The position numbers and the translations under genes were made by a program. Below the pieces are notes generated by a model. It was given only the letters and a program-made list of their open reading frames with translations, did no database searches and was not told where the DNA came from. 64,000 nt of DNA from Candidatus Hadarchaeota archaeon (GTDB lineage: Archaea; Hadarchaeota; Hadarchaeia; Hadarchaeales; JAGGTB01). The DNA is taken from contig CAYLJV010000002.1 in assembly GCA_964384105.1 (NCBI GenBank), forward strand, positions 648 to 64,647, written 5' to 3'. This document shows positions 3,767 through 36,159 of this stretch, piece by piece; within the stretch, counting starts at the first letter, position 1; each line of letters starts with the position of its first letter.

Positions 3767-4762
3767 GTGAGATACCTGAAAGAATTACCTAAGCAGAAGA
3801 GCCTTATATATAAGGGAGATTGGGACTTCCTAATAATATTGGACGCCTGCCGCTACGATTATTTTAAGAACTTATACAAATCGTATCTGCCCGATGGAAG
3901 TTTAACCAAAGTAGAATCGGAGGGATCCAATACTGCCCAATGGTTGATAAAAACTTTCGATAAACCGATGAGAGACACCATCTATATCTCTTCCACCCCA
4001 TGGGTAAACTCCAAAGTGCCTGTGGAACACGAAAAAATGGGGGAAATAGTAGATGTAAGAAATAGTTTTTCAAAAATTATAGATGTCTGGGATTTCGGCT
4101 GGGAAAACGGAGTAGTTTGGCCGAAAACCATGGTAGAAACTGCAAGAGTAGTTGAAGAAAAAAACTCAAACAAAAATAAAAGGAAGATAATCCATTATAA
4201 GCAGCCGCATTGTCCCTATCTTGAGGAGCTTGAAACCTATCACGGAGAAAAATATCTATCTCACCTCACTAATCTTATCGAATTACCCAACGGATTATTC
4301 AATAAGAAAAATAATGAAAAGGGGAAAAAATCAAGAAACAAGGTTGGAAAAGGAGTGGCGAGGGGAAGAATAGGCAAATTTTTAAAAAACACCTTTGGAA
4401 TGGAATTCTTCACAGAACTCAAAGAGTTTTTAAGATTACCGTCCAGAACTACCGGAGAGGTCATGAAAAGAAAAGGAGTAAAAGGCTTACGAAGGCTTTA
4501 TAATGAAAACCTTAGAAGAGTTCTTCGATCAGTAGCCGAGCTTAAGGAAATATTGGATGGAAAATTAGTGATCACTGCAGACCATGGTGAATTTTTAGGA
4601 GACGTATTTTATGAGGATCTAACGTCCAGACAAAGAAGGCAACTTAATGGCTTTAGAGGTAAGAATAATCAAAATTCGGACAAAAATGTAAAAGGTCCAC
4701 TTTCAGGCCATTCAATCGTAGAACATCCCATACTAAGAGAAGTTCCGTGGTGTATCGCTTAA
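3767..4762 (+). CDS. Alkaline-phosphatase-superfamily protein, subtype A (sulfatase / phosphoethanolamine-transferase-like core), with Lys/Arg-rich insertions
   Basis: 'ILDACRYDYF', 'SEGSNTAQWL' and 'ITADHGEFLG...HPILREVPW' motifs are shared with 4910..5728 and 12325..13176. The ADHGE.LGE motif resembles the sulfatase / EptA-type C-terminal metal site. No signal peptide. Confidence 0.5.
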   Translation: MRYLKELPKQKSLIYKGDWDFLIILDACRYDYFKNLYKSYLPDGSLTKVESEGSNTAQWLIKTFDKPMRDTIYISSTPWVNSKVPVEHEKMGEIVDVRNSFSKIIDVWDFGWENGVVWPKTMVETARVVEEKNSNKNKRKIIHYKQPHCPYLEELETYHGEKYLSHLTNLIELPNGLFNKKNNEKGKKSRNKVGKGVARGRIGKFLKNTFGMEFFTELKEFLRLPSRTTGEVMKRKGVKGLRRLYNENLRRVLRSVAELKEILDGKLVITADHGEFLGDVFYEDLTSRQRRQLNGFRGKNNQNSDKNVKGPLSGHSIVEHPILREVPWCIA

Positions 4763-16046: not shown

Positions 16047-16277
16047 ATGAGAACCAAAAACTGGATCAAGATATTCAGCCTCTCCATCATCACGGGAATA
16101 TGGACACTTGGAGTTCCTGTATTCGTCAACCTTTCCACCAAAGGACCACTGGACCCAGATCACCACTTGACCACCATGGGGCTTGCCTGGCTAATAATCA
16201 CCCTAATACTTCTCGGAGCACTATTTTTCGTAGGATATCGAATATACAAGAAATCCACCAAGAAGAAGAAACAGTAA
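16047..16277 (+). CDS. Small predicted membrane protein (two hydrophobic helices, Lys-rich tail)
   Basis: Hydrophobicity pattern only. Confidence 0.25.
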   Translation: MRTKNWIKIFSLSIITGIWTLGVPVFVNLSTKGPLDPDHHLTTMGLAWLIITLILLGALFFVGYRIYKKSTKKKKQ

Positions 16278-16349
16278 AACAAGGCAAATTATCAAACTCC
16301 GAGAAAAACATCCAAAGATAGTTAAGAGCCACCAACTCACTAAAATTCA

Positions 16350-17237
16350 ATGCCAGAAGAAGACACCACCTTAGAAAAGCTCAAAGAATCCTTCCCAATA
16401 AGCCAAGAGGAGGCAGAATCTCTTTTAGAACACCTGAAGACCTCCTGGAGATCGGAGGAACTAGTACCCCAACCGGAAGGCTACATCCTGGTTCCAACAA
16501 AGAGAATAGTCGAACCGGAACACCCGATAAGAGAGAACCCGGGGAACCTGAAACCCATCGCAAAATCGATAGAAAGAGAAGGAAACCTCCAGCCGATCTG
16601 CCTCAGACCACTGGACGAAGAATGGAGAAAGTTCACCCCAATAATAGGAAGAAGACGGTTCAGAGCCTGCACAGAAATATTGGGCATGAAGGAAATACCG
16701 GCCTACATTCGAGAAGTAGAGGAGGAAGAAGTGCCATCGATAGCTCTTGAAGAAAATATATTCCGAAAGAACCTGGAACCCTCCGAGCTCCTGAACGCAA
16801 TGCTCGAACTCAGGGAACTGGGATACGCACAGAAGGGGATAGCCGAGGTGGTCAACATGAGTCAGCCCGAGGTCTCGACCTACCTGAGAGTTCCAGAACT
16901 ACCCGACGATATTCGAGACGCCTTCTTTTCGGGAAATATATCGCTGGAGCACATCAAGGTCCTCCTCAAGATGAAAGGGAAGAGCAGGGAGAAACTCTTC
17001 GGTAGAATGATGGAAGAGAACCTGAGTGTCAACGACTCTAAAGCAATAGCGAAGCTGATGACCGGCGAGTTCGAGGTACCCGAGTTCTTCGACGGAGAGG
17101 AGTTCGAGTCCCGATTAGGGAGAAGCGTCGATTACAAAAGCACCAGCAGGAGCGCAAGGTTATCGGTAAAAGCAGAAAACGAGGAGAAACTGGGCGAGAT
17201 ACTGATGGAAATCCTGAAAGTAAAAAAGATAGAATAG
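16350..17237 (+). CDS. ParB/Srx (ParB N-terminal nuclease-like) domain protein with C-terminal HTH
   Basis: 'NLQPICLRPLDEEWRKFTPIIGRRRFRACTEI' resembles the ParB box region. The 3' end lies inside a ~90 bp repeat. Confidence 0.5.
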   Translation: MPEEDTTLEKLKESFPISQEEAESLLEHLKTSWRSEELVPQPEGYILVPTKRIVEPEHPIRENPGNLKPIAKSIEREGNLQPICLRPLDEEWRKFTPIIGRRRFRACTEILGMKEIPAYIREVEEEEVPSIALEENIFRKNLEPSELLNAMLELRELGYAQKGIAEVVNMSQPEVSTYLRVPELPDDIRDAFFSGNISLEHIKVLLKMKGKSREKLFGRMMEENLSVNDSKAIAKLMTGEFEVPEFFDGEEFESRLGRSVDYKSTSRSARLSVKAENEEKLGEILMEILKVKKIE

Positions 17238-17311
17238 CCTTCCTTTAGAAAATAAAGCAATTTTAGGAGATTTAGTATAGGTGACCTATAATCGATAACT
17301 CGAAGATTTTT
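17220..17311 (+). repeat. Direct repeat copy 1 (~90 bp, ~85-90 % identical to 17953..18047), includes the 3' end of the ParB-like gene
   Basis: Alignment by eye: ...aaaaaaga..gaaatag.c.tc.tt...aaaataaagcaattttaggagNtttagtataggtgacctataatcgataactcgaagatttt. Confidence 0.7.
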
Positions 17312-17357
17312 TCTTTAAAAGGGGACTGGTTCTAAATGGTTTTCAGGATAATACGGT

Positions 17358-17606
17358 ATGAAAATAGTCTTTTCCAATCATTCGCTGAAAAGATTGAAGC
17401 AAAGAAATATCTCGAGGAGAAAAATCGGGGGAATTCTAAAAAATCCAGATGAAACTCGAAAAGGAAAATACGGAAGAAAAATTGCACACAGGTGGGAAAA
17501 CGACAAATTAATTCGGGTAGTCTATATTAAAAAAGGAGAAAGAAGATACGTTATAACAGCCTACAAGACAGAACCAGACAGATATGGTGATAAAAAATGG
17601 AAATAA
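17358..17606 (+). CDS. DUF4258-family protein (toxin-like)
   Basis: 'SNHSLKRLKQRNISRRKI...LIRVVYIKKGERRYVITAY' matches the DUF4258 pattern. Overlaps the DUF2283 gene. Confidence 0.55.
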   Translation: MKIVFSNHSLKRLKQRNISRRKIGGILKNPDETRKGKYGRKIAHRWENDKLIRVVYIKKGERRYVITAYKTEPDRYGDKKWK

Positions 17607-17803
17607 GTTACGACCCAGAAGTAAACGTCCTAAACATACAATTACAAAAAGGAAATTATGAAAAAAGCATAGAGGTAGACGACAGAATCATAATCGACTA
17701 CTCAACTGATGGAAAGATAATGAACATCGAGATACTAGACGCAACAGAAAGAATATCCACAAAAACCATCGAAAACATGAAAAAACGAAAATCCATAGCA
17801 TAA
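17597..17803 (+). CDS. DUF2283-family protein (partner of DUF4258)
   Basis: 'YDPEVNVLNIQLQKG...DGKIMNIEILDA'. Confidence 0.6.
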   Translation: MEISYDPEVNVLNIQLQKGNYEKSIEVDDRIIIDYSTDGKIMNIEILDATERISTKTIENMKKRKSIA

Positions 17804-17836
17804 TCTCTCGTAAAATATATTTCTAAGAATACAAGG

Positions 17837-18016
17837 ATGAAGAAAAAACTAGAACAGAGTATACAAAAAACCATGAAAAAAATGCTGAAGGAAGAATTCG
17901 ACAGATGGGAAGCAACGTTCAAACTGGTCAAAGACAGGGCTATCCAAGAGAAGATAAAAAAGAGCCGAAATAGACTTCTTTCCAAAAATAAAGCAATTTT
18001 AGGAGTTTTAGTATAG
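17837..18016 (+). CDS. Small basic ORF (59 aa) whose 3' end lies in the second copy of the ~90 bp repeat
   Basis: ATG-initiated ORF just below the 60-aa track cut-off. Its 3' end is paralogous to the 3' end of 16350..17237. Confidence 0.2.
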   Translation: MKKKLEQSIQKTMKKMLKEEFDRWEATFKLVKDRAIQEKIKKSRNRLLSKNKAILGVLV

Positions 18017-18047
18017 GTGACCTATAATCGATAACTCGAAGATTTTT
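17953..18047 (+). repeat. Direct repeat copy 2, includes the 3' end of the 59-aa ORF
   Basis: Same as above. The core 63 nt is identical except for one base. Confidence 0.7.
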
Positions 18048-18084
18048 ATCTCCTATTAAAAAACTCTCTCAAAATATTCAATCG

Positions 18085-18474
18085 ATGAGAATTATTCACG
18101 AAATCCCGATTCTGAATCTCAAGGAAATTTTTTATACGCTCAAAGTACATTTTTTAAACGAGAAAATGCTGAAATCGAAGGAACGTGGGACCCCGATAAG
18201 GGAAGTCTTTGGGAATTCTCCAATGGTAAAAGTATTGGACACGTTGATAGAGAATCCAAAGCTCGACTACACAAAAAAGGAGCTTGCCGAAGCCGCCGGA
18301 ATAAGTAAGTCTACACTCTACAAGCTGTGGAACCAGCTAGAAGTAAATGAAATAATAGAGGAAACCCGAAGTATAGGGAACGCCACCCTGTACAAATTAA
18401 ATGAAGACTCGAGGATCGTACAAGAACTCGTCAAGTTCGAAAAAAGACTGCTTCAACTTCAAGAAGATCGGTGA
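18085..18474 (+). CDS. Winged-helix transcriptional regulator
   Basis: 'KKELAEAAGISKSTLYKLWNQLEVNEIIEE'. The true start may be the internal Met at about 18162. Confidence 0.5.
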   Translation: MRIIHEIPILNLKEIFYTLKVHFLNEKMLKSKERGTPIREVFGNSPMVKVLDTLIENPKLDYTKKELAEAAGISKSTLYKLWNQLEVNEIIEETRSIGNATLYKLNEDSRIVQELVKFEKRLLQLQEDR

Positions 18475-19098
18475 AAGCGTAATGCCCCAAGAAAGCGATT
18501 TGGTCTCTCCAATCCTATTCCACCTCTACAGAAGAAAACTCTGAGGATCCCCTGTACCCCAAAGGAAAAAGCCCTGAGCAAAATCCCAAAAAGACTAAGA
18601 GGAAAGGGAATGAAAACCATCGAGACACTCGTCAAACGAGGCATACTCTTGGAGCACAAAAAAGGAAAATGCGCTTCCCTGAACACAGGAAGAAAAGAAG
18701 AGATCATAGAAATCATGAAAAACTACTATCCCGATTACTATTTCTAAAGAACTTTTCAGACCAAAATTCCACACTAATGAGAGGGAATTGGTATCGGAAT
18801 CTCAAATATAAAGAATCTTTTATAGAAGCTCGAGAAGTAAAAAGGTCAAAATAACCCTCTTTGCGAAATCGAAAAAATCAGTTGACGAAGTAATCGACCT
18901 AAGAGATACATCTGACGAAATTTAATCGAGAACTTTCTCTCAAATAGTCTACCAAATTTTCTCTTAAAATTTGAAAAAGGAAGTTGTTTTTTACTTTTCT
19001 AAAAAAGACCTTCGCGAAATAATTAATTGATGAGGGATATTTTCGGAATTTCAACTAAAAGTCTCGCTAGAAAGAAAACGGACCGGGGAGACTAATAT

Positions 19099-19383
19099 AT
19101 GTATGAACATACACAGATACACATAGATAGGATGGGTTCAAAGAACATAAGTCTGAAAAAATCCGCTTACGAACGTCTAGCCTCTCTGAAAAAAGAAGAC
19201 GAAAGCTTCAGCGACGTCGTAGAAAGACTCACTAGAGACCAAGCGCCAAAGTACTCGGACCTAGCGGGAACACTCTCAAAAGACACGATCGAAGCCATTG
19301 AAAATACCAGGAAAGAGAGAAAAAAGCTGGATAAAGCCGGATTTAAAATAATAGCGAGAAAATTCGAGGAAGAGAAAAGATGA
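19099..19383 (+). CDS. Putative antitoxin (VapB-like, RHH-type family with an ESFSDVV motif)
   Basis: 'ISLKKSAYERLASLKKEDESFSDVVERL'. 4-nt overlap with the downstream PIN gene. Confidence 0.5.
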   Translation: MYEHTQIHIDRMGSKNISLKKSAYERLASLKKEDESFSDVVERLTRDQAPKYSDLAGTLSKDTIEAIENTRKERKKLDKAGFKIIARKFEEEKR

Positions 19384-19775
19384 TAGCGGATACGGGATAC
19401 CTCATAGACGTTCTGAAGGAGGAAGAAAGGGCGATCGAAAAGAGCTCCGAACTCGCGGAAGAGACCCGCACCCAAAACCTCTGTACACCTGTAATATACG
19501 AGATAATGACAGGAATAGAGTACACAAGGTCAAAAAAAGAGCGTGTAAAATTTGAGTCCATGGTGGGAAGATTCACGGTTCTCCCCTACGATGAGAAATC
19601 GGCCTGTCTATCGGGCGAGATACATGCTGAGCTGCTCAGAGAGGGTCAAAAGCGCGGAACCGTCGATATCCAGATCGCGAGCATAGCCCTTTCCAACGAC
19701 GAAACAATCCTGACGAACGACTCTGATTACGAGATAATCTCGGAGATATTTGGTCTAAAAACAGAAGGGTACTGA
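19380..19775 (+). CDS. PIN-domain ribonuclease (VapC-like toxin)
   Basis: N-terminal 'IADTGYLIDVL' with acidic residues spaced as in PIN domains, and a C-terminal 'TNDSD' motif. Confidence 0.6.
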   Translation: MIADTGYLIDVLKEEERAIEKSSELAEETRTQNLCTPVIYEIMTGIEYTRSKKERVKFESMVGRFTVLPYDEKSACLSGEIHAELLREGQKRGTVDIQIASIALSNDETILTNDSDYEIISEIFGLKTEGY

Positions 19776-19875
19776 ACGCCTCCACACACGAATTATCCGG
19801 CCGGAAGTTGTTTACCACTAAAATTCCAATTAATGAATTGAAGACGGTGATACACTGGATTTCAAAAAGGGAAAA

Positions 19876-20448
19876 TTGAAAATCAACAGAGAGCTCTCCA
19901 AACTAGATAAAATGGCTCTAGACTTTATTCAAAATCTGAAAAAGATGAACGTTAAGTACGTGATAGTAAGCGGATATGTAGCAATTCTCACAGGCAGATC
20001 TAGAAGCACGGAGGACATCGACGTGATCATCGAAAAATTGAGTAGAAACAAAACCGAAGGGCTCGTAGAAAACCTCCAAAATGCCGGATACTGGTGCATA
20101 AACGCCGAGACTTCAGGAGTCTACGAGATGCTAAATGAAGGACTCACCCCCAGGTTTGCAGAAAAGGGAAAAGCCATCCCCAATTTCGAGTTGAGTTTTC
20201 CTAGAGACGAGATCGAAAAGACCGCCCTAAGGAAAAGTCTCAAAGCGGAGATTGGTACAAGCATCATCAAAGTAAGTCCTTTGGAACTTCAAATCGCCTA
20301 CAAGCTATATCTAGGATCAGAAAAAGACTGGGAGGACGCTCTACACCTCTACAGTCTCTTTGAAGATAGGCTTGACAGAGAGGAGCTGGAGTATTATTCG
20401 AGGGAATTAAGGGTTAGAGGTGATTTAGATAAACTTAGAAAAGCTTGA
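19876..20448 (+). CDS. Nucleotidyltransferase-fold protein (minimal NTase / AbiEii-like)
   Basis: 'SGYVAILTGRSRSTEDIDVII' fits the hG[GS]x(9-13)DhD NTase motif. Confidence 0.4.
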   Translation: MKINRELSKLDKMALDFIQNLKKMNVKYVIVSGYVAILTGRSRSTEDIDVIIEKLSRNKTEGLVENLQNAGYWCINAETSGVYEMLNEGLTPRFAEKGKAIPNFELSFPRDEIEKTALRKSLKAEIGTSIIKVSPLELQIAYKLYLGSEKDWEDALHLYSLFEDRLDREELEYYSRELRVRGDLDKLRKA

Positions 20449-20758
20449 GGAAAAGCGAAAAAAGAACAAAAAGCAGAGAATAGAATTCATAAAATTCTGG
20501 GCGGACTACATCAAGAAACACAACGACGAGACGTGGTCGAAACAACAAAACATTCTAATCGACTCCCAGATCCCAGATAAAAAAGACAGCGAAAGCAGTC
20601 GATAGAGAAATTGTTAAAAACATCGAAGGATTGTCAAAGAACCCACGAGCGCAAAATCCGATATGGAAAGCTCCAAAACGCATTTGGGTGGGATAATATG
20701 TTACCTATGATCGGGAAAGTCTTTTCTTCTATTAAAGATCCTTCGATGGAATAATTAA

Positions 20759-21136
20759 TTGATGAAACCCAGCGAAGATCCACTACCTGATTCACCCGAA
20801 AAGAAATCCAAGAAGGAATCTTTATTAGTAGATAGTAGAAAGTGGAAAGTAGAGGGAGAACCGATGCGCTCAGTAAAAATAAAGGAACCCCAAGCGGACA
20901 TGGTCAAGGACCTAAAGAGATATCTCAAGGAGAAGGAAGACCTCAGCACGACCGAGGCCGAGATACTGAGCCGATCAGTCGACATAGCCGTGAGAAAACA
21001 CTACGATGAACTGGTCGAGGAACTCAAGTCCTCCGAAAAAAAGGAGAAGAAAGGAGTAATAGACTACATTCTCGAAAATCCCAAAGCGGGAGAGAAAACT
21101 GACGCGGCAGAGGACCACAGCGTGGTGGAACCTTGA
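20759..21136 (+). CDS. Hypothetical protein, possible antitoxin partner of the downstream PIN protein
   Basis: ATGA overlap with 21133..21534. Charged and helical composition. The true start may be the internal Met (MRSVKI). Confidence 0.3.
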   Translation: MMKPSEDPLPDSPEKKSKKESLLVDSRKWKVEGEPMRSVKIKEPQADMVKDLKRYLKEKEDLSTTEAEILSRSVDIAVRKHYDELVEELKSSEKKEKKGVIDYILENPKAGEKTDAAEDHSVVEP

Positions 21137-21534
21137 TCTTCGTGGACTCATCCGTCTGGGACGCCAGCTTGAATGAGAGAGACGAAAATCACGACTTGAG
21201 CAGGACCATCCTCAAGGAAGTGAAGAACGGCGAGTACGGAAAGATCATAGTTACCGACTACGTCATCGACGAAGTCCTGACATGGATCAACAGGAAAGTG
21301 GACCACGATACAGCCGTTGAAATCTCAGAGGAGTTCTTCGAAGACCCGACAATAGAAACAGTCAAGGTAAACTGGGCGGTAATCCACAGAGCGAGGGAGC
21401 TCTTTTCCGAAAGGGACTACCTTTCCTTCACCGATGCGACAACGGCCGTAGTCATGAACACCAGAGACATCCAAAGAATCGCGACTTTCGACTCCGACTT
21501 CAGTAAAGTCGGCTTCGAAGTAATCAGCGGGTAA
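21133..21534 (+). CDS. PIN-domain protein (VapC-like)
   Basis: 'MIFVDSSVW..', 'VTDYVIDEV', 'FTDATTAVVM', 'IATFDSDF' acidic quartet. Confidence 0.6.
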   Translation: MIFVDSSVWDASLNERDENHDLSRTILKEVKNGEYGKIIVTDYVIDEVLTWINRKVDHDTAVEISEEFFEDPTIETVKVNWAVIHRARELFSERDYLSFTDATTAVVMNTRDIQRIATFDSDFSKVGFEVISG

Positions 21535-21674
21535 TGCTGGAAACACAAACTAAATTCTCTCAAAATTTGAAAACACGATTTATTTCGATGTTAAAACATA
21601 ATGGACGATGACTTATTTAGTGGGAAAATCAAAATTAATACCCAAAATTCTAAATATGTGGGATTTTAGACAAT

Positions 21675-21935
21675 ATGTGGGACAAAATGCCGGTGGTTTC
21701 CGTCGACGACAGAGGAAGGATCACCCTCCCGAAAGAAACGAAAATTCGGGGAGGAAAGGCCGTGATAATTTCGGCAGGTTCATTTTTCAACATCATTCCC
21801 ATCCCCGAGGACCCGGAAAAATACGCGGAGGGATGGTTGGATTCCAAGAAAAGCAGAAAAGAACTGAAAGAGCTCGCAGAGAAAAAGGCTAAGGAGGACG
21901 CAAAGAGCAGATCGAAACGGAGAGATCAGCTTTGA
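21675..21935 (+). CDS. AbrB/SpoVT/MazE-type antitoxin (VapB-like)
   Basis: 'MPVVSVDDRGRITLPKETKI' swapped-hairpin motif. 4-nt overlap with the downstream PIN gene. Confidence 0.6.
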   Translation: MWDKMPVVSVDDRGRITLPKETKIRGGKAVIISAGSFFNIIPIPEDPEKYAEGWLDSKKSRKELKELAEKKAKEDAKSRSKRRDQL

Positions 21936-22351
21936 TGATAGAAACGGACGTTCTCTACGCTTATGTTAAGAAAAAGGACTGGCTGAAACCGACCGCAGTA
22001 AAACTGATTAGAGGTACGGCAAATGGTGAGTACGGAGAAGTTCTGGCTTCGAGAGAGTGTCTCCACGAGTTATATTACGTTTCAATGGAGGAAGGAGTCG
22101 ACCTAGATGAAGTTATTTCCAGGTTCGGAGCTTTAACTGCAATTGACAACCTTTCCTTTCCCGAAACGACTCCAGAACTCGACTTGGTCGCACTGACGCT
22201 AATGAAACAGTACAACTTTTCTTCGATTTTCGATGCACACCATGCAGCGGCGGCACTGGAACAGGACGAGGAGAGAACAATTATCTCTACGGACGACGTC
22301 TACGACAGAGTTCCCGGCCTGAAAAGAAAAGATCCTAGAGACTTGGTTTAA
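21932..22351 (+). CDS. PIN-domain protein (VapC-like)
   Basis: 'MMIETDVLYAYV...' with 'DAHHAAAAL' and a C-terminal 'STDD' motif. Confidence 0.5.
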   Translation: MMIETDVLYAYVKKKDWLKPTAVKLIRGTANGEYGEVLASRECLHELYYVSMEEGVDLDEVISRFGALTAIDNLSFPETTPELDLVALTLMKQYNFSSIFDAHHAAAALEQDEERTIISTDDVYDRVPGLKRKDPRDLV

Positions 22352-24305: not shown

Positions 24306-26036
24306 ATGTGCGGCATAACTGGTTACTATGGACACCGCGACGTGGGAAAGTACGTTCTGGACGCCCTGAAGAGGCTCGAGTACAGGGGGTACGACTCGGC
24401 CGGAATAGCAACTCTCTCCAATCCGGGTATCAAAATAGCGAAGGACACCGGAAACATAGACGAGATCCGGGGCAAGCTGGACCTTTCAGAGATGAAGGGA
24501 AGAGCAGCCCTGGGCCACGTAAGGTGGGCCACGCACGGAGGCGTCACGAAGGAGAACGCACATCCACACTGCTCCTGCGACGGAAGGTTCGCAGTGGTTC
24601 ACAACGGGATAATAGAAAACTGGGAGGAAATCAAAAACCGTCTAAACGGCCACGAATTCGCCTCAGAAACCGACTCCGAGGTCATAGCCCACTACATCGA
24701 AGAGAACTCCAAAGACATGACCGTCGAGGAGGTCATTCAGAAGTTCCTCAAGGAGGCAGAGGGGAGCTTCGCCGTGGTCCTGCTCGACTCGAAGGACGAG
24801 AGAATGTACGCCTTCAAGAGGGGATCCCCCTTGGCACTGGGTATCGGGGAGAACGAAACCCATCTAGGTTCAGACATCTACTCATTCTCACCTTACACGA
24901 ACGAGGCCATATTCTTCGAGGACGACGAGTACGCGATAATCGACGAGAACGGCTTCGCCTTCAGGAACTACACAGGTGAAACGATAGAGAAGGTGCCCGA
25001 GAGATTCGAGTGGAACCAGGAGGAGTCCGAAAAGGGCGAACACGAGCACCACATGAGAAATGAGATCGGGGAGATACCCCAGTCTCTGAAAAGGCTCCAG
25101 ACCTCATTTGACACATCCCAGAAAACGGCCCTCGAGGACCTCGTCAAAGCTCTGAAGGAACACAAAAGAGTCATATTCACGGCCTCCGGAACCAGCTATC
25201 ACGCCTCGCTTCTGGGTGTTTTCTTCCTGAACCGTGTCGGGATAGACGCTCAGACCCTCATAGCCTCAGAATTCCAGAACTACGAGAGGGTGGACGAAGA
25301 GACGCTCGTGATCGCGATATCACAGTCTGGGGAGACCAAAGACGTTATAGACGCCATAGAGTTCTCCAGAAACAGGGGAGCCGACGTCGCCTCGATAGTG
25401 AACGTCCCCTACTCCACGATAGAGAGGATATCCGATATCAATCTCAGGATAGAGGCGGGTCAAGAGGTCTGCGTGGCCGCGACCAAGACGTTCACGAACC
25501 AGCTCTACACACTCCTGAATGTCGCCCAAGAGCTCGGATACGACGCCCACCTCGACGACCTGCCGGAACTCATCGAGGAAGTAATAGAGAAAAACGAACC
25601 CAAAATCCGCGAACTAGCCAAGGAACTCAAGGACGAGAGGGACATCTACATTATCGGCAGAGGGCTGACCTACCCCGTGGCCAGAGAGATAGCCCTGAAG
25701 CTCAAAGAGATCCCCTACGTTCATGCGGAGGGAATGATGGGAGGGGAACTGAAACATGGGACCCTGGCCCTGATAGAGGAGGGGACACCGGTAATCTCTC
25801 TGATTCCCGAGAAAGACTCCGAGATTAAGTCGAACGTGAAAGAGGTTGAGGCCCGAGGTGGCAGGATTATCAAGATCTCGCCATGGGAAGGTGACTTAGA
25901 GATTCCCTCGAAGAACTCAAACTTCGCCTTTTTCGCTTCCATAATAGGATTCCTGCTCTCATATTGGATTGCTTACGAGAAAGGGCTTCCAGTGGACCAG
26001 CCACGGAACCTCAGCAAGTGTGTGACGGTTCGATAA
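24306..26036 (+). CDS. glmS: Glutamine--fructose-6-phosphate aminotransferase (isomerizing)
   Basis: N-terminal 'MCGITGY' class II amidotransferase nucleophile and two SIS domains ('SQSGETKD'). Confidence 0.9.
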   Translation: MCGITGYYGHRDVGKYVLDALKRLEYRGYDSAGIATLSNPGIKIAKDTGNIDEIRGKLDLSEMKGRAALGHVRWATHGGVTKENAHPHCSCDGRFAVVHNGIIENWEEIKNRLNGHEFASETDSEVIAHYIEENSKDMTVEEVIQKFLKEAEGSFAVVLLDSKDERMYAFKRGSPLALGIGENETHLGSDIYSFSPYTNEAIFFEDDEYAIIDENGFAFRNYTGETIEKVPERFEWNQEESEKGEHEHHMRNEIGEIPQSLKRLQTSFDTSQKTALEDLVKALKEHKRVIFTASGTSYHASLLGVFFLNRVGIDAQTLIASEFQNYERVDEETLVIAISQSGETKDVIDAIEFSRNRGADVASIVNVPYSTIERISDINLRIEAGQEVCVAATKTFTNQLYTLLNVAQELGYDAHLDDLPELIEEVIEKNEPKIRELAKELKDERDIYIIGRGLTYPVAREIALKLKEIPYVHAEGMMGGELKHGTLALIEEGTPVISLIPEKDSEIKSNVKEVEARGGRIIKISPWEGDLEIPSKNSNFAFFASIIGFLLSYWIAYEKGLPVDQPRNLSKCVTVR

Positions 26037-26114
26037 ATAATATTTTTTATCGAAATAAAGTCTTCAGTGTTTTATATAATTACTAATGAAGGATCTAAGC
26101 ACTACTGAAAAAAA

Positions 26115-26333
26115 TCAGACTTTTGTCTTTTTCCTTTTATTCTTCAAAATTGGCTCCAAAATGGAGAGGGCGGTCTCGCTAGCATCCAATATCTCTATCT
26201 CAACAGGTTTTCCGTCCTTTGAATAGTGGTTGATTATTGGTCCTGACTGTTCCCCGTATTCCGGTTTTTCATCAGATATCGTAATGGTGAGTATGTCTGT
26301 CTCCGGATCATAATCATATCTCATACCGTTCAC
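26115..26333 (-). CDS. DUF2283-family protein
   Basis: 'YDYDPETDILTITISDEKP...DGKPVEIEILDAS'. Confidence 0.6.
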   Translation of the reverse strand: MNGMRYDYDPETDILTITISDEKPEYGEQSGPIINHYSKDGKPVEIEILDASETALSILEPILKNKRKKTKV

Positions 26334-26550
26334 TCCTCGCTTTATATACTGTGATTATAACGTTTTTATCTTTCTCTTTTTGGAAGATAATTCTCAAAAT
26401 ATGACCATTAAGTCTTTTTTGAGCTATCTCCCTTCCCAAATCCCCCGGCACAACACTATCCGGGTCTTCAAAACCCTTATGGACAAGATTTCTAGAAATA
26501 TCGTACTGCATCATTCTTTCTCTCGCATGTTTTGTAATCTTTAAATTCAT
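26314..26550 (-). CDS. DUF4258-family protein
   Basis: 'ITKHARERMMQYDISRNLV....ILRIIFQKEKDKNVIITVY'. Overlaps its DUF2283 partner. Confidence 0.55.
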   Translation of the reverse strand: MNLKITKHARERMMQYDISRNLVHKGFEDPDSVVPGDLGREIAQKRLNGHILRIIFQKEKDKNVIITVYKARSERYEI

Positions 26551-26644
26551 TAAACTCCCCCAAAACCTTCTTGCCTCTAAATTACAGTTAGAAGGTTTTT
26601 AAATCAATAAATAATCGAATTTCATAAAAAGTATCTTCATTAAT

Positions 26645-34364: not shown

Positions 34365-35059
34365 TTGCCAGTGCTACTCTATCAAACAAAACCACTAAAT
34401 CTCTTTTTTTCTTTTTTATGAAAAATCGAATCTTAGGCTTTTAGTTAATATAGACAAACAGAAAACACAAGGTATTTAAAGGAAATATAAAATTCAGTTA
34501 AATTTACTTTCAAAAATTAATTTCGGTAAAAAATGGTCTCTTTCAAATCCTGTTAACAGATATAGATTAGAAAATCTCTGGAATCTTTTTAAAAATCCCA
34601 ATAAATTCCTAAACTAAAAGGTCGCTGTTTTAGAGATGATAAATATCACAAGATTATCTGGTGTTAAAGTCTAGCATCTTGCCAGATTCTGGATCGATAA
34701 GGACCCAAAAGGATACTCCAACTGGTTCTTCGAGTCCCTTCACTCGAACGCATTCTCTAAGGTCCCCAGGTTTCACCTCGACCTCCTCGAGGCTCCGCTC
34801 GTAGATCTTAGCAGATGTATTACTGGAATCGAAAAAATCTTCTAATGCGATAGGTTCCCCAACATCCTTCTTGAGAACTATCAAGCTCCTACCATCTTTC
34901 TCGAGGACTATCTCATAATCCTCGATTCTAAAGAAAACGGTAAACTGCTCCCCTCTTTACTATGTCCTACTCATTCCTTTTATGGAATTCTCCAATTTTT
35001 GTTACACCCATAACAAAAAATCCCGAAAACAAAAACTACCAAATCGAAGCAATATTTGC

Positions 35060-35084
35060 CGATTTAATATAGGTCACCTATAAT
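35060..35084. promoter_or_regulatory. Third copy of the palindromic motif GATTTA-R-TATAGGT-S-ACCTATAAT (also at 17266..17290 and 18004..18027)
   Basis: 25-nt match with 2 mismatches to the repeat core. The TATAGGTNACCTATA core is dyad-symmetric and intergenic. Confidence 0.35.
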
Positions 35085-35199
35085 TTGAGAACGAATCCAA
35101 ATCCATCGTAACCATTAATCAGTTCTAGGATTAGAAAAAACTCTCAACTGGTTTATATCCACAAAGAAATACCCGATGACAGATGGAGGTAGAAATAAT

Positions 35200-36159
35200 C
35201 TATAAATCCTTAACTAGACCTTCTCTAAGGTCCTTCTTCTGAATCCGAGTTCCATCACCGACTATCGTGTCTATAATAATAGAATCTTCAATATCACAAT
35301 TCTCGAAAATTATCGAATTTTCTATCTCGGAATTTTTAACCTTACTTCCCTTCAAAATAGTTACGTTATCACCTATATCTGAGTTTTCGACATCGCCCCA
35401 TACTATATTTTCCTCTCTTATCTCCCTCTCGGCCCTCAGGTACCCAACGCGAGTTCCAACATCCACCCATTTACCCTCGAAGGGATAAGCGTAAACGTCA
35501 TAGTTGTCAACAGTCCACTGGATGAACCTTCCCGGCTCGTCTAAATACTGTTCTCGTGGTATTCTACCCTCCCAGTAATCAACGTATCTATCAAAGACAT
35601 TCAACATTTCTTCGGGAATGAAGTAACAAGCGGTCGAGGCCATTCTAGATTTGGGATTTTTAGGTTTTTCCTGGAAGTTGGAAATCATCTTGTCTTTCCC
35701 GAAGTCCACAATACCGTAGTTCTTTGCCTCTTCAAGGCTTTTCACGCGAAAGCATGCGTTTGCGATACTTCCTTTTTCCCTTGCAAAATCTAGAAAATCT
35801 TGAATTTTGAAGGAGTAATAGTTGTCTCCACCAATTATCAGGTAATCCCCCGACTCCCTTTCCTTGATCACATTCATCATGCCACCAACGGCTCCATACT
35901 TCTCCTCCTCAGCACTCTGTCGCTCTATAATAAGCTCGTATCTTTCACCTTCTTTCTCAGAGAGGTATTCTCCGAAGGAATCCTCAAACCGCTCGTTAGT
36001 GGTTACATATATCTTATCCGCATCTTCTATCTGCTCAAGTTCATCCAGAATATAATCCAAGATAGGTTTACCACCTAAGGGCAGAAGCGGCTTTGCCTTC
36101 TTCTTGGTTATGGGCCAGAGTCGAGTCGCATATCCACCTGCAAGTATCAGTACCTTCAT
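35200..36159 (-). CDS. Sugar-phosphate nucleotidyltransferase with a C-terminal left-handed beta-helix (hexapeptide) domain (GlmU / mannose-1-P guanylyltransferase-like)
   Basis: 'KVLILAGGYATRLWPITKKKAKPLLPLGGKPI' and C-terminal 'IENSIIFENCDIEDSIIIDTIV' hexapeptide repeats. Confidence 0.7.
   Translation of the reverse strand: MKVLILAGGYATRLWPITKKKAKPLLPLGGKPILDYILDELEQIEDADKIYVTTNERFEDSFGEYLSEKEGERYELIIERQSAEEEKYGAVGGMMNVIKERESGDYLIIGGDNYYSFKIQDFLDFAREKGSIANACFRVKSLEEAKNYGIVDFGKDKMISNFQEKPKNPKSRMASTACYFIPEEMLNVFDRYVDYWEGRIPREQYLDEPGRFIQWTVDNYDVYAYPFEGKWVDVGTRVGYLRAEREIREENIVWGDVENSDIGDNVTILKGSKVKNSEIENSIIFENCDIEDSIIIDTIVGDGTRIQKKDLREGLVKDL

Follow-up and report, generated by a model that had tools for sequence, protein, structure and literature searches.

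The element considered here, called R, is a repeat of 90 nucleotides (nt) that follows a ParB-family gene in the genome of Candidatus Hadarchaeota archaeon (assembly GCA_964384105.1, contig CAYLJV010000002.1). The analysis covers positions 648 to 64,647 of this contig, a stretch of 64,000 nt referred to below as the window, in which two copies of R bracket a small toxin–antitoxin-like gene pair and a third, partial copy stands 17.8 kilobases (kb) away. R is tentatively read, with a probability of about 0.4, as a parS-like site of this ParB that was duplicated when a mobile toxin–antitoxin module inserted by illegitimate recombination; both the binding of R by ParB and the route of duplication are predictions drawn from sequence comparison. 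On this reading, an archaeal orphan ParB would gain a concrete candidate site, namely a palindrome of 15 base pairs (bp) in three copies, paralleled by a different palindrome in its nearest relative. What archaeal orphan ParBs bind, and why, becomes directly testable by a simple binding assay.

The repeat R and its palindrome

The copies of R and their palindromes are located as follows.

17222–17311, plus strand: repeat copy 1 (R1), 90 nt, core 17249–17311, found by repeat detection
17958–18047, plus strand: repeat copy 2 (R2), 90 nt, core 17985–18047, palindrome 18012–18026
17276–17290: palindrome in R1, TATAGGT-G-ACCTATA, a perfect 7-1-7 and the candidate parS-like site
35041–35085, plus strand: third, partial copy of R, intergenic between two minus-strand genes, palindrome 35068–35082 with a central C

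R1 and R2 are 88% identical over 90 nt and form the sole long near-identical repeat of the 64-kb window. The first-pass annotation of this DNA, made from the letters alone, had described two copies of about 90 bp with a 63-nt core differing by one base, each copy including the last codons of an open reading frame (ORF); repeat detection bears this out, with a start-to-start distance of 736 bp rather than the 733 bp given there. Within the core, 62 of 63 nt are identical, the sole difference being an A at 17270 against a T at 18006. The core finds no further match in the window, and shuffling gave none either (0/100). To the left of the core, 17 of 27 nt (63%) are identical in a fixed register (empirical p ~5e-4); farther upstream the similarity is not significant (p = 0.08), and to the right of the core it ends abruptly (12/46). 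R1 takes in the last five codons of parB and its stop (17235–17237), and its palindrome begins 39 nt past the final base of that stop codon; R2 takes in the last 20 codons, including the stop (18014–18016), of an ORF of 59 amino acids (aa). The duplication is unlikely to be an assembly artefact: a contig from an independent assembly (Logan, SRR7048220; L001) stops at window position 17300, exactly one 31-mer beyond the A/T variant of the core, and this is the branch expected in a de Bruijn graph if the reads hold both copies of R.

Where two copies had been reported, the window holds a third, partial one. Over 35047–35084 it is identical to the centre of the core at 32 of 38 positions, in the same orientation as R1 and R2 (alignment AAGCAAT..GATTTA.TATAGGT.ACCTATAAT), with a local score of 41–46 against a shuffle mean of 20.4 (standard deviation 3.0, maximum 33). 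It shares the palindrome, here TATAGGTCACCTATA, together with the conserved 5′ flank, and does not share the last 19 nt of the core or the left flank. A search of the window with a 46-nt profile of R returned these three copies only, and among the near-palindromes of the window that of R is the only recurring one containing G+C. The third copy lies between a 76-aa ORF (34654–34884, minus strand), which has no Pfam hit and no canonical start codon in the open frame upstream of its TTG, and a nucleotidyltransferase (NTP-transferase) gene (35200–36159, minus strand); no cassette is attached to it.

The core thus contains a perfect 7-1-7 palindrome, TATAGGT-S-ACCTATA, and a perfect palindrome that recurs at an unrelated site, with flanks diverging beyond 38 nt, would be the signature of a protein-binding element. 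The central base is a G in R1 and R2 and a C at the third site, which is what reading by a symmetric dimer would predict, and a 7-1-7 arrangement with an unread central base resembles the sites of KorB and VirB. R would accordingly act at the DNA level, its heart being the palindrome and about 20 nt of conserved 5′ flank. Folding of R is no better than that of shuffled sequence (z = +0.39, −0.88 and −0.21), and an Rfam search of 15–21 kb gave no match. Neither 596 Gb of genomes nor the JGI metagenomes yielded a match in exact-pattern scans with a 20-mer and a degenerate 22-mer of R.

Three further likenesses were set aside. The sole viral match to a 17-mer of R (L005) lies within a phage coding region and is taken as a chance match; the right-flank likeness between the third site and R2 (AAAAAACTCTC) falls outside the significant local alignment; and the stretch that precedes R2, considered as a relic of the 3′ end of another parB, shows no similarity when translated in the matching frame. 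A weak R-like half-site, ACCTATGATCGG, stands at 20687–20712, ~50–70 nt upstream of a 125-aa ORF, and is not significant (nhmmer E 4.4).

The ParB-like protein and its relatives

The gene that precedes R1 is the following.

16350–17237, plus strand: orphan ParB-family gene, 295 aa, identified by Pfam, TIGR00180, Protein Data Bank (PDB) matches and alignment

Judged by its domains and motifs, the product is a canonical-type orphan ParB. Pfam detects ParB_N (PF02195, 2.9e-13) and HTH_ParB (PF17762, 4.6e-12), and TIGR00180 is matched with 94 bits against a cutoff of 58.45. Among PDB entries, phmmer finds Spo0J (1vz0, 1.4e-20) and also ParB, Noc and KorB (range 1e-20 to 2e-7), and the alignment to Spo0J covers the helix–turn–helix (HTH). 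In the CTPase-fold N-domain, the sequence GRRRFRA occupies the place of the cytidine triphosphate (CTP) motif GxxRxxA (aligned to GERRxRA), ENxxRxxL is present, and the C-terminal region is in register with ParB dimerisation domains, PF23552 being undetected in this protein. The ParA-binding motif LG(R/K)GL is absent from the N-terminal part of the window ParB and of its two nearest relatives, and Pfam finds neither ParA nor Orc1 among the scanned window ORFs; these two absences, of the motif and of ParA, are what make the protein an orphan.

That an orphan ParB clamp can load at a palindrome and regulate genes is established for KorB, Noc, VirB and BisD. Archaeal canonical ParBs without ParA are also known, but to our knowledge no DNA target or role has been assigned to any of them. 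According to a recent survey, orphan ParBs are widespread and the architecture of ParB fold plus HTH is found in archaea, where chromosomal ParABS is essentially absent (PMC12704722).

The best named homologues come from MSBL1 single-cell genomes and Hadarchaeia metagenome-assembled genomes (MAGs). A ParB with 82% identity is also recorded in ENA ERZ10759774. The nearest relative with an informative locus, at 55% identity, belongs to MSBL1 SCGC-AAA259I09 (L002), and its contig carries a different palindromic element of 27 nt, TGATGTYTTCCGAAGACRTTGAAMCGG, in two copies (1364–1390 and 4530–4556) that are identical at 24 of 27 positions, the palindrome being ATGTCTTC-C-GAAGACAT. The first copy starts 2 nt past the parB stop, and the second, at a distance of 3.2 kb, falls between convergent genes. 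This element is the longest direct repeat of its contig, and 0/200 shuffles reached the observed count. Two lineages thus hold different palindromes at the same place relative to parB, which is what co-evolution of an HTH and its site would produce. A weaker third half-site is seen in the same contig at 2811–2824.

A more distant relative is found on a 21-kb Logan contig (SRR14872663; L003), where the ParB-like gene comes directly after a TFIIB gene. This contig is virus- or plasmid-like, as it also encodes an archaeo-eukaryotic primase (AEP) and several DNA methyltransferases, a context that suggests that the ParB subfamily may also travel on mobile elements. The plasmid and phage collections searched returned distant bacterial ParBs only, and no DNA match.

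The DNA between the repeats

The bracketed DNA holds the following features.

17304–17808, plus strand: toxin–antitoxin module (DUF4258–DUF2283), delimited by BLASTN to three related loci (L006, L007, L008), Pfam and low GC
17358–17606, plus strand: DUF4258 toxin-like gene, Pfam 37.5 bits (cutoff 25)
17597–17803, plus strand: DUF2283 gene, Pfam 51.6 bits (cutoff 23)
17809–17957, plus strand: unique filler, holding the 5′ two-thirds of the 59-aa ORF
17837–18016, plus strand: 59-aa ORF, without homologue

Pfam agrees with the identities first assigned to the ParB-like, DUF4258 and DUF2283 products, including those of a second DUF4258/DUF2283 pair elsewhere in the window. The repeats had been said to enclose only the gene pair; they also enclose ~150 nt of unique DNA with most of the 59-aa ORF. 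The DUF4258 and DUF2283 genes overlap by 10 nt and are preceded by a T-rich/TATA promoter region of their own (TTTTTTCTTTAAAA, 17306–17319). The first 8 nt of the module (AGATTTTT), in the form conserved across other genomes, are the last 8 nt of R1, and R2 runs on differently after the same 8 nt. GC between the cores is 34% (third-position GC, GC3, 0.31–0.40), against 49% in parB (0.59) and 43% in the winged helix–turn–helix (wHTH) gene downstream (0.50).

BLASTN, run against loci fetched through protein homologues, divides the region into independent modules; no close relative of the locus as a whole turned up in the searches. The module shows 89.4% DNA identity over 508 nt to a contig of the MSBL1 archaeon SCGC-AAA382C18 (L006), 77% to a second contig of the same genome (L007) and 74% to a locus in another MAG (L008). 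Homology starts at the T-rich/TATA stretch (G)ATTTTTTCTTTAWAA, ~50 nt before the start codon, and runs to the DUF2283 stop codon or to just short of it. Each related module stands in a different gene neighbourhood, mostly a glycosyltransferase cluster, and none of the three loci has R, its palindrome or long flanking repeats, the only flanking repeat there being a 14-nt promoter motif. This motif, an exact repeat in L006 (9948–9961 and 10766–10779; GATTTTTTCTTTAT), precedes both the module and the next plus-strand gene and is probably typical of the lineage (a T-run plus TATA) rather than an insertion scar. The low GC, together with the presence of the module at other sites in different neighbourhoods, supports reading the bracketed DNA as inserted and of mobile type. 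A ~505-bp module with its promoter thus moves as a unit in MSBL1/Hadarchaeia with neither a recombinase of its own nor flanking repeats, and long direct repeats around it are therefore insufficient evidence for an att-type cassette.

The pair belongs, as an unexceptional case, to the DUF4258 toxin family (BECR, RelE/ParE superfamily), which is uncharacterised. Close variants of the DUF4258 protein, in a cluster at ≥90% identity (P0029 and P0030), occur on two contigs from Logan and ENA; an exact-protein look-up of the window wHTH and DUF4258 products gave no match. The 59-aa ORF, which takes its final 10 sense codons from the R2 core, hits only itself among 1.84 billion representative proteins and has no Pfam hit even at E ≤ 10 and no NCBIfam hit. 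Lacking both homologue and family match, it was not accepted as a third gene of the cassette; it is regarded as filler and is unlikely to be a conserved gene. The filler has no DNA similarity elsewhere.

A binder for R and a route for its duplication

Three candidate DNA-binding proteins adjoin R, namely ParB, DUF2283 and the wHTH protein. The comparative data back ParB alone as the putative binder, because the toxin–antitoxin and wHTH modules occur elsewhere without R (no R lies upstream of the wHTH modules of L011, L012 and L016). R would then belong to the gene that precedes it and serve as the loading or binding site of an orphan ParB, in the manner of KorB/OB, Noc/NBS and VirB/virS, with two of its candidate sites just past the parB gene and the third at a distance of 17.8 kb.

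The low-GC insert consists of the ~505-bp self-promoted module, which moves as a unit among MSBL1/Hadarchaeia, and of some 150 nt of filler. The module would have been joined to R through the 8-nt microhomology AGATTTTT: replication may have left the chromosome at GATTTTT, copied the donor (module and filler together) and returned to it at a point upstream of R, leaving R duplicated. Such an illegitimate or template-switch event fits better than site-specific recombination because of the microhomology at the junction, the lack of a recombinase, the duplicated length of 63–90 nt and the unique filler. The identity of 98% in the core against 63% in the left flank suggests either that gene conversion acted on the core afterwards or that the donor brought in an R that had already diverged.

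Several points weigh against reading R as a ParB site duplicated in this way. The unequal identity of core and left flank calls for gene conversion or a second assumption beyond one duplication. Only one ParB relative (L002) is informative, its palindrome could be a terminator hairpin (it follows the stop, recurs in a convergent region, and both of its substitutions are G-U compatible), and the 35%-identical relative (L003) has no repeated palindrome. The count of copies covers the 64-kb window, and R could be a widespread repeat unrelated to ParB. Binding of R by ParB, finally, is a prediction only.

Alternative explanations

R might instead be an operator for another factor (the wHTH protein, DUF2283 or an unlinked regulator), duplicated together with a promoter region and co-regulating both modules as well as a gene near 35 kb. 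Its palindrome is typical of dimeric regulators, R1 and R2 end just upstream of TATA-like boxes (17306–17319 and 18052–18064), and wHTH regulators often autoregulate. The DUF2283 domain is found, in addition, in the transcriptional activator FseA (PMC4755241). This explanation is nevertheless unlikely: the homologues of the wHTH module (73–76% DNA identity) and of the toxin–antitoxin module (74–89%) keep their own promoters without R or a similar palindrome, and no credible gene in the same orientation lies downstream of the third copy.

The first-pass annotation likened the arrangement to an att-flanked mini-cassette or a duplication-mediated insertion. Its inserted, mobile character is supported by GC and module homology; its att sites or boundaries are not, given the lack of a recombinase and the recurrence of the palindrome elsewhere. 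For R1 and R2 to be attL and attR, or cassette boundaries, of a recombinase encoded elsewhere, with the 736-bp unit excisable as a circle, there speak the near-identical direct repeats (62/63) around compositionally foreign DNA with a mobile module, the overlap of one repeat with a gene 3′ end, as in many att sites, and the 7-bp centre GGTGACC of the palindrome, conceivable in principle as a recombinase core site. Yet no integrase was found inside the repeats, as first noted, and no integrase, resolvase or transposase is seen inside, adjacent or among the scanned window ORFs of at least 110 aa (11 without Pfam assignment). The module occurs at three other sites without R or flanking repeats beyond the 14-nt promoter motif; attC consensus boxes (RYYYAAC / GTTRRRY) and terminal inverted repeats are absent; the third copy has no cassette, and identity drops to 63% over the 27 nt on the left. 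Such sites are accordingly improbable here.

To regard R as an RNA element of gene 3′ ends, in other words a parB 3′ untranslated region or terminator (a hairpin plus a T5–6 run) that was copied so as to end the inserted transcript too, is to explain why each of the two copies sits at the 3′ end of a plus-strand ORF and closes with GATTTTT(T), oligo-T serving in archaeal termination. The L002 palindrome, right after a stop and in a convergent region, with G-U compatible changes, is also consistent with it. The z-scores of R1 and R2 (+0.39, −0.88) nevertheless show folding no better than in shuffles, the hairpin has only 6 bp, with 16 nt between it and the T-run, no explanation is offered for the conserved 5′ flank, and the third copy is opposite in orientation to the gene that it follows and lacks the T-run portion, so that there is little likelihood of this role.

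A small selfish or neutral dispersed repeat family, of the kind of miniature inverted-repeat transposable elements (MITEs) or repetitive extragenic palindromic (REP) sequences, with R1 and R2 as two recent copies of one subfamily, would account for a conserved centre with variable ends. The annotation had allowed that R might prove a generic intergenic repeat at many unrelated sites, and three copies in 64 kb go part of the way towards this. But single copies show neither terminal inverted repeats nor target-site duplications, the scans of 596 Gb of genomes and of the JGI metagenomes stayed negative even for the degenerate 22-mer, and parB is within 800 bp of two of the three copies; a dispersed family seems a poor candidate. 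Least probable is that R is the recombination site of an undescribed archaeal cassette-capture system, with a recombinase in trans or a ParB-fold protein (nuclease or accessory) moving small self-promoted modules, which, if true, would build the toxin–antitoxin island beside parB in integron-like fashion.

Comparison with known systems

The orphan ParB-CTPase clamps (KorB/OB of RK2, Noc/NBS, VirB/virS and BisD) resemble the present system in their protein (a ParB N-domain with GxxRxxA, an HTH, a C-terminal region and no ParA motif) and in their sites, which are short palindromes with a single central base, present in several copies, some near the gene and promoters. The KorB site is a 6-1-6 (TTTAGC-S-GCTAAA), whereas that of R is a 7-1-7. 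The present case differs by its archaeal host (an MSBL1/Hadarchaeia relative), its unrelated site sequence and its three sites, and binding of CTP and of the site is here predicted. Plasmid centromeres (P1 parS, F sopC) likewise combine a repeated element immediately 3′ of a parB-family gene with addiction modules alongside; in contrast, the window has no ParA or replication gene, the repeats are 736 bp apart instead of forming a tandem array, and the neighbourhood, which includes glycosylation, glmS and thermosome genes, is chromosomal. As a parS-like site, R is thus both present and suitably placed, and its binding is predicted.

Integron cassettes with attC share with this locus a toxin–antitoxin unit of ~0.7 kb between two similar elements of 60–90 nt that contain an inverted repeat. 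Unlike them, however, the locus has a single bracketed unit without IntI, attI, array or R″/R′ boxes, the palindrome is perfect and short rather than a bulged hairpin of the attC type, and the module is found elsewhere without R. With regard to transposons and MITEs, the ends of the bracketed DNA carry no inverted repeats, and a duplicated 63–90 nt is far beyond known target-site duplications (2–15 bp). The locus therefore lacks the tested defining features of an integron cassette or a MITE, and of those of an att-flanked element it shows the direct repeats only.

The pair itself is akin to type II toxin–antitoxin systems of the DUF4258 family (PF14076), with small overlapping genes, an own promoter and a patchy distribution of mobile type. 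A published list places DUF4258 among the uncharacterised BECR toxin families and gives fusions to MqsA (PMC11980606). The present pair departs from that family as listed in that its partner is DUF2283 and its toxin gene comes first, its toxicity being predicted.

The surrounding island

Beyond the repeats, the features are the following.

18048–18121, plus strand: unique spacer between R2 and the wHTH module, with TATA-like CCTATTAAAAAAC ~27 nt before ATG 18085
18122–18748, plus strand: wHTH gene plus 88-aa partner module, 73–76% DNA identity to three other loci (L011, L012, L016)
19099–19775: VapB/PIN, island module
19876–20448: DUF6036 nucleotidyltransferase, island module
20759–21534: 125-aa ORF plus PIN, island module
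21690–22351: 81-aa ORF plus PIN, island module
26115–26550, minus strand: second DUF4258/DUF2283 pair (Pfam), no R nearby

The stretch CCTATTAAAAAAC in the spacer is a putative promoter. Homologues of the wHTH protein have 103–105 aa and share a conserved promoter, TTTTTATA (18131–18138 here), ~35 nt before their ATG; the true start of the window gene is therefore taken to be ATG 18166 and not 18085, with its end at 18474, and the annotated 129-aa ORF (NCBI P0016) is seemingly 27 codons too long. The 88-aa partner, which has no Pfam hit, is broken in the window by a TGG-to-TGA change and a frameshift, and an ORF of 45 aa remains (18610–18747). The two genes form a conserved module in MSBL1/Hadarchaeia, usually among toxin–antitoxin genes, with copies at 18166–18748 in the window, 2560–3144 in L011 and 1911–2489 in L012.

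The second DUF4258/DUF2283 pair had been reported as free of such repeats, and a comparison of the two pairs had been proposed. R is indeed absent around it, and the pairs are distant paralogues with 30% and 45% aa identity. The search for long repeats around this pair gave only a 12-nt match, TCRATAAATAAT (11/12, at 26030–26041 and 26604–26615), one copy of which overlaps the glmS stop; with a chance expectation estimated at ~0.3 in AT-rich spacers, it is probably meaningless.

The region 16047–22351 is a co-oriented, A-rich island of small modules beside a glycosylation gene cluster. It resembles a plasmid stability region, with no replication or integrase gene seen in it, and related toxin–antitoxin modules in other MAGs also lie within glycosyltransferase clusters. 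A second, weaker family of intergenic elements of ~44 nt, 64–70% identical, is found there at 18045–18088, 18990–19033 and 20722–20765. These elements end in AATAATTAATTGATGA, and in every one a TATA-like box precedes an ATG or TTG by ~27 nt; they look like units of promoter plus leaderless start placed before the island modules.

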